DNA from: Eledone cirrhosa
Lineage: Eukaryota
DNA: 64,000 nt
Direction: 5' to 3'
Assembly (NCBI GenBank): GCA_964016885.1
Contig: OZ024751.1
Location: forward strand, 7,068,001 to 7,132,000
Under the pieces are notes generated by a model. That model did not search any database, was not told the DNA's origin, and saw nothing but the letters and a program-made list of their open reading frames with translations. Position numbers and translations under genes: made by a program. Position 1 is the first letter of the stretch. Every line of letters begins with the position of its first letter. Positions 495-63,950 of this stretch are shown here, in pieces.

Positions 495-576
495 ACTTCC
501 TGATGACGCAATGAATTCTCGACAGTTGGATTACATAACTGTCTTTATCCCATTGCAGAAACTAATTAGTTGGAGT
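495..576 (+). ncRNA. Type I hammerhead ribozyme with extended stem II
   Basis: Stem I ACTTC/GGAGT; core CTGATGA (500-506); stem II GCAATG/CATTGC enclosing the hairpin GACAGTT/AACTGTC; GAAA (558-561); palindromic stem III ACTAATTAGT; cleavage triplet GUU. Confidence 0.8.
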
Positions 577-1056
577 GAAAATTTAAGTAAGAAAAAAATT
601 TTTTTTTTTTAAATTTTTTTTAAAGAAATATTTTCTTATTTTACGTCCTTTATATTATTGTTCTGCATTCTCCTGCATTGAACCACCTAGGTACTATGAC
701 ATAACCTGTGTATTTGCTGGCATGGGCGTGCATCTGTGCGCTTATGTTAGTTGATATATTAAATTATCTATATTTATCTCCAAATCACTGATTTGTCGAG
801 CAAACTTGTCAAAACCACTTCTAAAAAAATTTTTTTTGGGGTGTTAGTAGGCGTCAGTCATCTTACCATCCCATTCCTTCTAACTAGCCTCTGTGTCACG
901 TGATTGATTCTTTAGAATCGGCCATTTGACTTGAAGCAGTGAGAATTTCGGTACATTGAATTCAGTCCTCGCAAGCTGTTCGATCTACCGAATTATTATT
1001 ATTTTTATATGAGCCGCCAGTGTCCGCGCATTGCCTGGAGACTTAACTGAGAATAG

Positions 1057-1138
1057 ACTTCCTGATGACGCAATGAATTCTCGACAGTTGGATTACATAA
1101 CTGTCTTTATCCCATTGCAGAAACTAATTAGTTGGAGT
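1057..1138 (+). ncRNA. Type I hammerhead ribozyme (second tandem copy)
   Basis: Identical to 495-576. Confidence 0.8.
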
Positions 1139-1320
1139 GAAAATTTAAGTAAGAAAAAAATTTTTTTTTTTTTTTTTTTTAAATTTTTTTTAAAGAAATA
1201 TTTTCTTATTTTACGTCCTTTATATATATATATATATATATATATATATATATATATATAGTGGTAGAACACTGGAAGGTAATATCCGTAGTGGTAGAGC
1301 ACTCAGTCCATGGGACGAGT

Positions 1321-1468
1321 TATGTAGAAGTGGTTACACAACAGTTAGTTCACCTTACCGAGAACAATTGCTTCACCTTAGCCGATCCATTACGAGCTGA
1401 GGCTCCGCTAAGGTGAAACAATTGTTCTCGGTATGGTGAACTACCTGTTGTGTAACAACTTCTATATA
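1321..1468. repeat. Fold-back inverted repeat with a variant minimal hammerhead motif at 1393-1430 (+)
   Basis: Arms ~1321-1382 and ~1406-1468. Motif reads CGAG-CTGAGGC-T-CC-GCTAA-GG-T-GAAAC-AATT-GTT-CTCG; the core is CTGAGGC rather than CTGANGA. Confidence 0.65.
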
Positions 1469-1485
1469 TGTATATATGTATATAC

Positions 1486-1873
1486 AATATGTTGAAAAGG
1501 TAACACACTAGAGAGAGATACAGTGCGCAATAAATAAAACAGGGAAAAACCACCACTGTATAGAATATATAACCTATGGAAGGCAGAATATAGACACGAT
1601 AATCAAAAATATAAATTAAAGCGTAAATAAATACATCTATAACTATATAACACACGTACAAATCCAAAGTGATCTGTTTCGCCAGTAAGTTGTTGACGGA
1701 AATAATATAACCCAGATTATAGAGGTATTTATTTACGCTTTAATTTATATTTTTAATTATCATGTCTATATTCTGCCTTCCATAGGTTATGGATTCCATA
1801 CACCGGTGGTTTTACCCTGTTTTATTGATGGCACACTGTATCTCTCTCTAGTGTGTTACATTTTCAACATATT
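1486..1873. repeat. Imperfect inverted repeat (~155-bp arms); its right flank is duplicated directly at ~2153-2211
   Basis: aatatgttgaaaa..ctatggaaggcagaatatagac..gcgtaaataaatac is the reverse complement of 1717-1873. ttttcaacatattgtattttaaagt..gagcacattattt occurs at ~1861 and ~2153. Confidence 0.75.
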
Positions 1874-2423
1874 GTATTTTAAAGTGCCCAGGATTTCTTC
1901 TCCTGTGAGCACATTATTTACAGGGAACGGCGTCAATGTATCGTGTTATTTCTCTCCTTATAACAGTCTTTCTCCTCTCTCTCTGTTTGGTTGAGCACCC
2001 TTCTCTAAGTGGTTTTGGGCTGCCCTTTCTAGCAGCTCGTCCCTCAGAGGCCACTGGTTAACTGCCCTTAAACACGCTGTGACTTCTCTCTCCCACGTGT
2101 AGTTGGACGGCTGCTTTAAGAATTCTCTTAGTGTTGTCTGAAATGTATAGCCTTTTCAACATATTGTATTTTAAAGTACCCAGGATTTCCTCTCCTTTGA
2201 GCACATTATTTGAGCATATTCTTTTAACTATATATATATATATGTATATATATATATATATATATATATATATATATATATATATATATATATATATATG
2301 TGTGTGTGTATATACATGTATATGTATATCTATTTATGATAAGTTATTCCGGGTTGAATCGGAGGTAACCACTGTAAATAAGGTACACAATACATAGCAG
2401 AGTATAACAGTTTTAATATAGAA

Positions 2424-61120: not shown

Positions 61121-61232
61121 AGCAATTAGCCCAGTATATTACTGGTACTTTATTTTATCGACCCCGTAAGGATGAAAGGCAAAGTTAACCTCTGCGGGAT
61201 TAATTTTGCCTTTCATCCTTACGGGGCCGATG
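61121..61232. mobile_element. SINE family A fragment folded back on itself
   Basis: atcgaccccgtaaggatgaaaggcaaagttaa..ttaattttgcctttcatccttacggggccgat. Confidence 0.8.
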
Positions 61233-61419
61233 ATAGATAAATATACATATATGTATAGAGTAATAGATAGAAATAAATATATATATATATAAGAGAGGGA
61301 GAGAGAGAGAGAGTGAGAGAGAGATAGAGATACGTATGTGTATAAATACATATATATATATATTATATATTTATATACGTACATATATATATGTGTGCAT
61401 GTATGTATATATATATATA

Positions 61420-61640
61420 TATACATACTACTGTACGTCTGTATACATATATCTATGTACGTGTACATACTTATATTTATGTAACAGCCGTACTAAGAGT
61501 GGGAAATGAAATTTCGTTTCATTTTTTCCGTTTATCGTTTTCGATTAAACCACTCGATATGCAAATTGGGCTACTCAGCCGTTAATATGCATAAGGTAAG
61601 TATATACGTTCAACAATCTGGCAGGAAGGTATACGTTGCT
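61420..61640 (+). repeat. Fragment of the ~431-bp HHR family, ending right after the 5' strand of stem I
   Basis: ..ggcaggaaggtatacgttgct followed by (TA)n. Confidence 0.78.
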
Positions 61641-61662
61641 ATATATATATATATATATATTA

Positions 61663-61779
61663 TATAGGAAAAAGTATGACCCCGGCGGCAGAATTCAAGC
61701 CGTTTCGACGGGTATTTCTGGACTGAAATAGCCGTCGAAACGGCTTGAAGCTCTGCCGTGGGGGTCATACTTTTTCCTA
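61663..61779. repeat. Fold-back (~53-bp arms) of the 3' half of an HHR
   Basis: Arms ataggaaaaagtatgacccc..gtttcgacgg and ccgtcgaaacggc..gggtcatactttttcctat; GAAAC-GGC..GCC-GT forms stem III. Confidence 0.75.
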
Positions 61780-63619
61780 TTTCCCATTCTACTACCCTAA
61801 ATATTGAGTACTGTGGTGCGTTATGGTCCATCTGTTTCCTTACCGCATTTCCTTTGTTATATATTATATATATATATTCAGTTAGACTGAATGTGAACAT
61901 TTCTGATCCTTATTTTGGGAATATTGTGTATATTATACATAGCATTATTTTTGTTCTTTTATAATAATTACCTAATTCTAGTAACCGAACTTCATTTCAG
62001 AATCGTTCTTTTTAAAGCAACTCACATTTCTGTATTGTATTGTACAAATTAACTGATAGCTGGGTATGTAGCTTCTTAATGTAGTTGCTAAAATGGTTAT
62101 TATGTGTGGTTCACTGAAGTAACGTTAGGTCTTCTCTTTGATTCGATAAACAAGATAATACATGAAAATAAAAATACACAAAAAACTTGCTTCGGATAAT
62201 TTGATATTCAAGTGTTTTAGTAACAACTTGAAAATAATGATGTAGTAGATTGAAATTATACGGTTTCTAGGGAGAGAAGTAATTAAATTTATGTCGCTAA
62301 ACCAAGCTGTTCACGAATGGAAGAATCTATATTTCAAGTAATTATTTCTGAGGCAAATTAAACGAAATCCTACTGAAAATTCCAGGTGAAAAAAAATGGG
62401 TATGTTGTATGACCACTTAAAACCTGCATAGAATTTATTGAAACACGAGAATCGATTCACATTTGCACTTTCCAGGTACTCATAAAGTATGAAATGGAAA
62501 CAGTTTCAAAGTTTTGCAATGAAATAGATAAAAAGAGGTAATATGTATCTGATTGTTATGTGTTTACTTCAACTAGCAAGATATTTTACTTGCATAAATG
62601 TATATGGCTTCCTTGCTATTGTTTCTAAATTGATTAACATCCATTTGCTACTGTTGATTCTTAAGTGTCCACATTTGTACATCGTTCAATTTATGTATAA
62701 CATTTGTATTTTATTTTCTCGAGTGATCCACAATGCACTGAATCCCAACATGTTTCGTTTACCAGATGGTACAATTGTATTCTGTCGTGCAATATGTATT
62801 ATATTCACAATAAGTCTAACATAAAAACAGTGTGGTTTCGAAAGGCATTTCAAATAAATAGAACCGTTTCAGCATTCTATTTAGTCTATGTCGTGTATTT
62901 TGAAGCGAAGGATATAGTATACATCGTTAAAGGAATCGTATAACAAAATTTAGTGTTATGTCTATACACGAAGAAAATAATTCTAACAACACCATGTCTC
63001 GTATCTACATCTATAGTACATTTCTACAAAGAAATATTCCAGTAGCTGCCTATGCGCTCAGTCAATATGTTATGTTCTAAACATTTCGCATATTAACTGA
63101 TCTTACGATTGTTAATTCTTATGGATTGTTAAATTTTGGCATTTCATATTTAAACAAATATTAAAACGAAAACAAATATAAATGACTCTAGTACTATTTC
63201 ATATTACAGGCTGCAGGTTCACTATAACTAACCTTGCAGATTTACGAAGAAAATTCCACAATATACATGAGCATATTATAATATAGCCACCATCATTATG
63301 AAAGTAAACGGTTGCAAGTAAAATCCGAAGCCTACGTATCGTGTATATATATATATATATATATATATATATACAGTGGGCCGGCCGTCGAAGAAACAAC
63401 ACCATGCGCTCGGCCGCACCACTGTATCATGAAAAGAAAACCTTTTTCGCCGAATTTATTGTTTTTTCGAATTTAAAGGTTTTTTTAGGAACGTTCAATG
63501 TTTATTTTAGGTTTTGCCGTCTGGAGAGTTCATCAGTGAAATATATATAACGGAGTTTTAAATAAACCTGAATCAACTATATATGGCCCCCGATATATAT
63601 ATATATATATATATATATA

Positions 63620-63950
63620 TTAAAATTAAAATAACAGATAACATGTTAAGAAAAAGAATTGCTGCTTTCTCCCTTAACGGGGTCTTCTGAAACTAAAAAA
63701 ATAAATCTGTAAACGCAGAAGTAAATATTTCGAAAAACGTTGCAACCGAAGGAAGACAGGAAGACGATACTTTGGTTCGTAAAGACGTTCCCTGACAATG
63801 AACGGAAACAATGAAGATAATACGTCATTATGTGGAGTGATGAGAACAATTACACGCAAAGACAAAACCACGTTTATGGTATCACTGAAGTCGTAGACTA
63901 TAATTCTATTTAGGAAACCGAATGATTCCCTTCTTCAGAGTGAAGAATAA
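63620..63950 (-). repeat. Longer copy of the CAGAAGA..GAAA family seen at 3944-4167
   Basis: Minus strand: tttCAGAAGA-C-CCC-gttaa-GGG-A-GAAAG-cagcaatt-CTT. Confidence 0.6.

Follow-up and report, generated by a model that had tools for sequence, protein, structure and literature searches.

Hammerhead-bearing ends of Penelope-like elements and putative retrozymes in a 64-kb window of the Eledone cirrhosa genome

Results and discussion

Hammerhead-bearing repeats in the window

We analysed a stretch of 64,000 nucleotides (nt) of the octopod Eledone cirrhosa (assembly GCA_964016885.1, 2,996 Mb; contig OZ024751.1, positions 7,068,001 to 7,132,000, forward strand), referred to as the window, which is 36.6% G+C and rich in (TA)n, and in which a first-pass annotation had noticed numerous cores of hammerhead ribozymes. 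The window likely represents a dense graveyard of (TA)n-associated insertions of Penelope-like elements (PLEs) with predicted hammerheads at their 3' ends, accompanied by retrozymes that were probably copied by the same PLE enzymes. About 20 families can be distinguished (by masked self-BLAST, a generic repeat finder having been overwhelmed by microsatellites): nine are ends of coding PLEs, six are tandem repeats lacking an open reading frame (ORF), and five (F, K2, L, N and U) could belong to either class. The features are listed below with coordinates in the window, using RT for reverse transcriptase, UTR for untranslated region, LTR for long terminal repeat and SINE for short interspersed element.

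1-1220 (+): family A, putative retrozyme array of 562-bp units, hammerhead C3 at 500 and 1062; runs on upstream beyond the window edge; its last piece, 121 nt long, is inverted
1261-1462 (both strands): family N, head-to-head insertion; core at 1397 (+) with a private A9C
2338-2874 (-): family F; hammerhead at 2469
3675-3917 (-): family O copy, a PLE 3' end related to E; damaged core at 3911
3937-4165 (both strands): family S, head-to-head insertion, 3' end of a coding PLE of apparent Hydra type; U4A core at 4104 (+)
5137-6195 (+): family B, putative retrozyme, partial tandem of a ~627-bp unit; hammerheads at 5234 and 5861
6434-7356 (+): family G, partial tandem of a ~693-bp non-coding unit; hammerhead at 7002
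7405-10583 (-): family R, broken coding PLE (RT and GIY-YIG endonuclease, 8322-10328); U3-A8 hammerhead (core at 7552, GAAA near 7455); a SINE is inserted in its 3' UTR, and an inverted 3' piece lies at 10456-10583
11600-12069 (+): family K2, 83% identical to K; core at 11865 with C3U
12070-13058 (both strands): family C, putative retrozyme, 431-bp tandem (-) with hammerhead at 12480; inverted arm at 13023 with U16.1 changed
14300-14668 (+): family P copy, ~498-bp non-coding unit; the family core is CAGAAGA (U4A), here CGGAAGA at 14350
15345-15705 (-): second family P copy, truncated in the core
16167-17862 (+): family H, long C/A-rich 3' UTR of a coding PLE; minimal hammerhead at 17743 with a 2-bp stem I
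17885-18278 (both strands): family D, head-to-head insertion, PLE 3' end; hammerheads at 17977 (-) and 18090 (+)
20753-21185 (+): family C copy; core at 20984 with C3U
21342-21901 (both strands): family E, head-to-head insertion, 3' end of a coding PLE; hammerheads at 21587 (-) and 21714 (+)
26021-27446 (+): family I, GIY-YIG remnant (26333-26809) and 3' UTR; minimal hammerhead at 27329
31488-31690 (+): family J, old (~75% identity between copies); hammerhead at 31491, truncated in stem I
32675-32837 (-): family K, 3' end; hammerhead at 32770
33487-33542 (-): family S fragment; U4A core
43600-44492 (+): family E copy with GIY-YIG remnant (43623-44057); hammerhead at 44252
46931-47390 (both strands): family M, head-to-head insertion, pseudo-LTR of a PLE of apparent Hydra type that is intact at locus L321; A6G cores at 47119 (-) and 47290 (+)
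47686-47830 (-): family L, 78% identical to M; hammerhead at 47775
49822-49990 (-): family S copy; U4A core at 49984
50432-50891 (+): family B monomer; core at 50569, altered stem II
58247-58810 (both strands): family O, head-to-head insertion truncated inside stem II (58556)
61428-61639 (+): family C fragment ending at the core
61667-61857 (both strands): family U, head-to-head insertion truncated in loop II
63620-64000 (-): family S copy with 3' UTR; U4A core at 63689

Motifs were sought with a structure-aware type I scanner (core CUGANGA/GAAA/NUH plus stems I to III, thresholds tuned on the window) that tolerates three features known from the literature (PMC4209133, PMC3088659): an additional base following A9, a mismatch at 10.1/11.1 and a palindromic stem III. 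Fifteen complete type I folds were found in the 64 kb, against a mean of 0.02 and a maximum of 1 in 50 block-wise dinucleotide shuffles, and the predicted hammerhead motifs are real. The first-pass annotation had listed 18 strict core sites, 15 of which are complete folds by our scanner; the other three belong to families with intact cores elsewhere (at 17743 stem I has only 2 bp, as in 20/20 copies of family H; at 32770 a stem III change is private to the copy; at 50569 stem II departs from the common sequence of family B). The nine sites given as degenerate likewise all map to hammerhead families: 7455 is the 3' half of a U3-A8 variant with its 5' core at 7552 (-), 14347 is a member of a U4A family, and 58556 and 61663 are 5'-truncated within the ribozyme. 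All 27 sites lie in dispersed repeat families, and several more had been overlooked (family S at 4104+, 33542-, 49984- and 63689-; also 11865+ and 47119-). The count of at least a dozen families holds, because the 18 strict sites belong to 12 of them; their description as unrelated does not, given that identity is 78% between L and M and 83% between K2 and K, and that some 3' sequence is common to E and O.

The association with (TA)n was borne out as well: 29 of 33 sites in the window lie within 300 nt of a (TA)5, compared with 53% of random positions, and the corresponding figures in the genome sample described below are 53/55 motifs and 33%. Other descriptors were less informative. An Rfam scan of the window gave no hammerhead match at the gathering score, and at E<=10 no hammerhead family appears among the 150 of 367 matches listed; a rigid descriptor without mismatches found only three sites and was judged too strict; the bare CTGANGA string is uninformative (38 occurrences in the window, shuffled mean 22); and a scan with the first core box unconstrained returned mainly TA-rich noise.

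Density in the genome

The same scanner was applied to 60 evenly spaced 10-kb pieces of the genome (600,000 bases), which held 55 motifs; five shuffles of the sample gave 0, 2, 0, 0 and 1, and five decoy cores gave 0 to 3. This corresponds to 92 intact motifs per Mb (bootstrap 62-123) or, extrapolated genome-wide, to about 270,000 (Poisson 207,000-357,000). The 55 motifs form 22-24 sequence clusters. With 234 motifs per Mb, the window has about 2.5 times the average density of the genome, and hammerhead-bearing PLE ends occupy about 29% of it (hand-set intervals). Published counts are 126,247 for the axolotl (PMC7229834), with a genome of 28.21 Gb (bioRxiv 10.64898/2026.07.22.740005), more than 6,000 in 16 families for a coral and about 5,000 for a mussel (PMC7229834), and about 9,000 for Xenopus (PMC4209133). 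The density found here suggests a value above these counts, a comparison that is only suggestive because the descriptors differ, so that no record is claimed. Further U3-A8 families, some in inverted pairs, were observed in the genome sample (L341, L342, L349, L392 and L393) and are outside the 92 per Mb.

Genome searches were also run for 18 of the families, each with its own query; K2 and U were examined within the loci so retrieved. Intact cores were found in 25/25 best-scoring genome copies each of B, C and D, 24/25 of E, 23/25 of K, 20/20 of H, 19/20 each of I and L, 17/20 each of F and M, 16/20 of G, 14/20 of N and 12/25 of J, and in 10/10 partly overlapping loci of A; as top matches, these fractions are biased upward.

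Families that run into coding sequence

Nine families (D, E, H, I, K, M, O, R and S) run upstream into PLE coding sequence, and they look like short repeats because most of their copies are 5'-truncated. Family M is the pseudo-LTR of an uninterrupted RT/GIY-YIG ORF of 738 amino acids (aa), arranged as pseudo-LTR, ORF, UTR and pseudo-LTR, and accompanied by an inverted partner (L321). An upstream endonuclease in the same orientation is present in 25 of 65 copies of E (mirror control 5), 14 of 41 of I (1), 9 of 23 of R (1), 18 of 100 of S (6) and 3 of 8 of O (1; all eight copies come from loci retrieved for other families). This count dropped copies with identical flanks and hence undercounts the young families D, H, K and M. 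Family H is linked to coding sequence in L243, L249, L250 and L326, D in L077 and K in L187 (a Hydra-type endonuclease). ORFs spanning RT to endonuclease are seen for E, I and R, and the endonuclease only for D, H, K, O and S. The first pass had recognised only three sites as attached to PLE coding sequence; the copy at 44252, with its GIY-YIG remnant upstream, is a further one.

The M ORF has RWR and DKT motifs, a CxCx5C linker, no CCHH, CxxC and CxH around the C-terminal E/N, and a (TA)n target. The linker is present in K and degenerate in R and D, while S is placed by similarity alone; judged by motifs and similarity rather than phylogeny, D, K, M, R and S resemble Hydra-type elements. E and I carry a CX2-5CxxC linker plus cysteines between GIY and YIG, and E, H, I and O (H and O by similarity) resemble the Neptune/Nematis type, two clades taken together here. 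Pfam matches to the PLE proteins are weak (GIY-YIG E=0.005, RVT_1 E=0.0006, both under the cut-off; five of seven proteins had no match), and the three named homologues of a PLE protein are from Argonauta hians (36-41% identity).

The upstream endonuclease search found no link to coding sequence for F (0/54 copies), U (0/90 copies), N, L and K2, although L and K2 resemble the coding families M and K. In family U, nearly every one of 83 copies is truncated and inverted within loop II; the few that keep the 5' core have an atypical one. Broken PLE coding remnants at 27509-28537 (+) have no obvious hammerhead, and their 3' part is 68% identical to the Hydra-type endonuclease end in L228. A long C2H2 zinc-finger array at L326:3-1469 (-) adjoins a family H insertion.

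Tandem families without open reading frames

Tandem units without ORFs are well supported for A (560 bp), B (625 bp) and C (431 bp), and less so for G (~693 bp), P (~498 bp) and J (~360-530 bp), G and P also having partial tandems. The longest ATG-initiated ORFs of the six units are 40-80 aa. Spacing from hammerhead to hammerhead is 559-582 bp in A (4/5 loci), 624-628 in B (8/22) and mostly 411-440 in C (9/24), and each unit of these three families has one type I hammerhead and 32-35% G+C. By these features (ORF-less tandem unit, hammerhead, G+C below 50%), their assignment to the non-LTR retrozymes is well supported. The predicted circular folds of the units are more stable than those of shuffled sequences (z scores of -4.7, -2.2 and -4.3 for A, B and C).

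Copies of A are mostly 98-100% identical, and the arrays are dispersed over many chromosomes (among the 150 of 248 matches listed). We read four A arrays whole: all four are bordered by (TA)n on either side and contain a head-to-head junction, their two 3' ends lying 122 nt apart, and no PLE protein match was found inside them. A arrays hold 8-10 whole 560-bp units, and B reaches three whole units plus a part (L337). Each A array has its own substitution haplotype, common to all of its whole units and, in the three arrays with whole units on both arms, common to both arms; two neighbouring units of L335 carry an additional variant. Such single-haplotype arrays are consistent with a circular template, or a homogeneous multimer, having been copied repeatedly.

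The insertion footprint

Two fixed 3' ends, 48-138 nt apart, were found in 10 of 10 families tested. In head-to-head pairs the long end is on one arm and the short end on the other in 93 of 95 classifiable cases (five more were unclassified); setting aside loci fetched by the family's own query, the figure is 48/48 (two unclassified). Unpaired ends divide into 80 long and 80 short. The retrozyme arrays carry the PLE footprint of (TA)n target, head-to-head inversion and two alternative 3' ends, although the numbers of pairs are small for the ORF-less families (A 5, G 1, P 1). In vitro, both DNA strands are cut by a PLE protein and extended, copying beginning at two start sites within the RNA, and the tail is the stretch between them (PMC11167929); a tail on one inverted arm has been published as optional or frequent (PMC3846280, PMC8557442).

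Two mechanisms fit the rule of one long and one short end, namely priming of both cut ends at different sites and fold-back copying of one cDNA. The junctions in L335 and L336 are asymmetric and that in L334 is symmetric; fold-back copying would need a template jump for the former two and fits L334 well.

Some further observations concern these ends. Tail lengths fall into groups (A 122, G 122 and R 127-138; M, D, P and S 81-93; E, N and O 48-60), which might be a pointer to which PLE moves which retrozyme. The palindrome arms at 58306-58806 are 99.4% identical, more alike than copies of O are (~94-96%), which suggests recent fold-back copying or conversion between the arms. Head-to-head palindromes with a one-sided extension also lie in (TA)n at 1485-1874, 3194-3548, 4419-4837 and 14829-15282; no complete hammerhead was found in them, and they probably represent the 3' ends of additional families. 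Elsewhere, copies of the piece at 4690-4837 have a half motif (GAAA, palindrome, TC) upstream.

A proposed route and the evidence against it

We propose that RNA would be transcribed through tandem copies and that paired hammerheads would cleave it as dimers, after which monomers may re-ligate to circles. A PLE RT/GIY-YIG complex would then cut a (TA)n tract, and reverse transcription would start internally on the RNA, at either of two fixed sites separated by 50-140 nt. The distal site would set one end of the insertion and the proximal site the other, so that the two arms would lie head-to-head and only one would bear a tail. If the retrozyme RNA is short and circular, or a homogeneous multimer, several rounds of reverse transcription would give one-haplotype arrays; the coding families would resemble short hammerhead repeats because most events stop early.

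Several results weigh against parts of this proposal. Two full hammerheads were found at few loci of the less supported tandem families (G 1/20, P 1/18, J 3/25), and short tandems also occur in the coding families S (4/30) and H (1/20). An endonuclease lies upstream of B in 3/36 and of C in 6/70 copies (at variable distance and mostly belonging to other families), and the links of D and K to coding sequence amount to one direct locus each plus one with a common UTR. Compared with eight coding PLE segments, all from families of this window, the six units show no convincing nucleotide similarity that would point to a partner PLE; in Xenopus, 21 of 57 retrozyme families matched PLEs (bioRxiv 10.64898/2026.07.22.740005). 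Isolated hammerheads do not adopt the hammerhead fold as minimum-energy monomers, except for parts of B. In vitro, the RT start site is the same for both strands (PMC11167929). Lastly, among 328 unselected copies of 13 families (K had no usable reference and J no matches), the cleavage site is not a preferred 5' end (p=0.32 for a peak): 17 copies begin within 5 nt of it and 236 begin upstream of it by more than 5 nt. Cleaved RNA 5' ends as setters of the truncation points are therefore unsupported, and the missing peak implies that cleaved linear RNA is not the usual template; it fits circles and equally fits no cleavage at all.

What the ribozymes do

This last point bears on a possible, if unlikely, variant of the proposal, in which mobilisation proceeds as described and many of the hammerheads no longer cleave, being retained as structural or protein-binding signals. 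U4A, together with A7, is fixed both in the coding family S (50/52 copies matching the probe, copies 98-99% identical) and in the ORF-less family P (10/10), each with a long stem III; in addition to the minimal stem I of H and the missing 5' pile-up, hammerhead mutants still insert in vitro, where insertion has no need of cleavage (PMC11167929), and only one of nine Xenopus retrozyme dimers cleaved (bioRxiv 10.64898/2026.07.22.740005). Against this, canonical cores are kept in most of the 22-24 sampled clusters, and single core substitutions other than U4A are sporadic (0-3 matches each in 600 kb). Moreover, in R, which has a 65-nt loop II, the U3-A8 covariation occurs in 28/28 copies, and such a compensated pair argues for selection on catalysis. 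Variant PLE hammerheads were reportedly described by Lunse and colleagues in 2017. U4A is absent from the available text of PMC3088659 and from our literature searches, and may already have been reported.

As is expected for dimer cleavage (PMC4209133, PMC6765202), 38 of the 55 sampled motifs have a stem III that is self-complementary throughout, and the palindrome differs by family. A more speculative and rather improbable idea is that the palindrome serves as an RNA-RNA dimerisation signal bringing two template units to a dimeric PLE enzyme. If it did, both ends of the cut (TA)n tract could be primed in one event at the distal and proximal sites, which would account for the long-and-short rule and for a hammerhead and two start sites sufficing for retrozymes. 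The fixed U4A of an active family would be understandable, with pairing rather than cleavage being selected, and this genome, with its ~270,000 intact motifs, would be the densest known population of such elements.

Other origins for the repeats

The first pass had read nearly all families as a large radiation of non-autonomous elements parasitising PLEs. In favour of this, copies are mostly short, no coding link was seen for F, U, N, L and K2, and six families are ORF-less tandems. However, nine families continue upstream into GIY-YIG or full ORFs, and L and K2 resemble the coding M and K, which makes this very unlikely for the set as a whole. The claim is thus mixed, because 9/20 families are 3' ends or pseudo-LTRs of coding PLEs and five could be either: the non-autonomous elements are present (clearly so for A, B and C, with less support for G, P and J), and both kinds have been published.

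Even less probable is that the tandem families are satellites amplified at the DNA level after a rare insertion, by unequal exchange or rolling DNA circles, the hammerhead simply being carried along. Local amplification would also suit one haplotype per array, and this route is discussed by Li et al. 2026 (bioRxiv 10.64898/2026.07.22.740005), but the arrays lie on many chromosomes at 98-100% identity, have variable 5' starts and two fixed 3' ends beside (TA)n, and are inverted head-to-head as coding PLEs are. That all families are truncated autonomous PLEs, with no true retrozymes, is scarcely tenable: nine families are indeed such ends and partial tandems are normal for PLEs (PMC8557442), but it is already contradicted for A, B and C by their constant spacing, by the 8-10 whole units of the A arrays with no PLE protein match and by the B array of L337. 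A mixture of PLE ends and retrozymes sharing the PLE machinery is the reading with which we proceed.

Other repeats in the window

A repeat at 32953-33293 (-), found in 12 loci, has CTGATGA near its end, the remainder of a hammerhead not being seen; another at 63374-63592 (-) has CTGATGA at 63536 and one distant relative among the retrieved loci. Copies at 13168-13753, 29001-29195, 44545-45152 and 46405-46902 form a (TA)n-flanked family of 500-600 bp, 87-96% alike, in which no hammerhead was found. Broken ORFs of non-LTR retrotransposons (endonuclease and RT pieces), which we take to be L1/Tx1-, Dong/R4- and RTE-like, lie at 35201-38586 (-), 39428-41393 (+), 51422-53700 (+) and 55159-57750 (+). 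A SINE-like repeat, presumably octopus-like, has more than 10 copies (4294-4418, 7901-8100, 14008-14202, 19178-19368, 24258-24785, 29628-29817, 48157-48340, 49704-49823 and others), one of them being inserted in the 3' UTR of family R. A basic frame of 135 aa at 45641-46045 (-) has no PLE match among the retrieved loci besides itself.

Comparison with known systems

Literature searches, also for high hammerhead counts, gave no report of hammerhead PLE ends or retrozymes for octopus or other cephalopods, though the supplements of Li et al. 2026 could list some; the supplementary file of PMC4209133 that was searched has no octopus entry, and ribozymes go unmentioned in the available text of two cephalopod repeat papers (PMC13282606, PMC8967140). 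In File S1 of PMC8557442, Octopus occurs four times, at least two of the entries being Naiads.

With the PLE pseudo-LTR hammerheads of Cervera and De la Pena 2014 (PMC4209133), the motifs share type I topology, the extra nucleotide after A9, palindromic stem III, many families per genome, U3-A8 covariation, opposite-strand pairs 100-700 bp apart, and copies that are mostly truncated and far from an ORF. They differ in that many have a long or branched loop II (35-65 nt), in the U10.1-U11.1 mismatch, in the U4A of two families and in estimated counts far above the 2,000-9,000 given there, although obtained with different descriptors. With metazoan non-LTR retrozymes (PMC7229834; Li, Clavereau and Pollet 2026) the tandems share the lack of ORFs, less than 50% G+C, one type I hammerhead per unit, coexistence with PLEs and unit lengths within 51-972 bp. 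Those two studies infer mobilisation by PLEs from coexistence and pseudo-LTR similarity (PMC7229834; bioRxiv 10.64898/2026.07.22.740005). Here, by contrast, the inverted junction, one-sided tail and (TA)n target are seen directly in the arrays, for which no similarity to a pseudo-LTR partner was found among the coding segments compared; the words 'inverted' and 'opposite' are absent from the main text of PMC7229834.

Family M shares with the Hydra clade (Craig et al. 2021, PMC8557442) RWR (for RWK), DKT, the CxCx5C linker, the absence of CCHH, CxxC and CxH around the C-terminal E/N, a canonical hammerhead and (TA)n targets. Clade members are generally below 3 kb, whereas M spans ~4.1 kb with a ~1.4-kb 3' UTR, and the clade has few families outside cnidarians, whereas Hydra-type ends apparently make up five of nine coding families here. 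The two 3' ends, one-arm tail and head-to-head palindromes are shared with PLE tails and internal RT initiation as described by Arkhipova et al. 2013 (PMC3846280) and Frangieh et al. 2024 (PMC11167929). However, published tails of 30-40 nt compare with 48-138 nt here, and a tail at one end that is described as occurring 'optionally' or 'often' is near-obligate here (48/48), ORF-less elements included.

The elements of the window are therefore members of published kinds, hammerhead PLE ends and opposite-strand pairs having been described in 2014 and tandem retrozymes in 2020, with a PLE origin argued in 2026. What is added is the high density, the PLE footprint on ORF-less arrays with its near-obligate one-tail rule, and the U4A cores; hammerhead-bearing PLE ends are suggested to be a large unannotated part of an octopod genome. 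The literature leaves open which enzyme moves animal retrozymes, how PLE head-to-head insertions are made and what purpose PLE hammerheads serve. For these questions the genome offers young test material. One 560-bp family lacks ORFs, has copies that are 99% identical and shows the complete PLE footprint; the intact ORF of Hydra type is a candidate for the enzyme; U4A and U3-A8 cores occur naturally; and the near-obligate one-tail rule constrains any mechanism.

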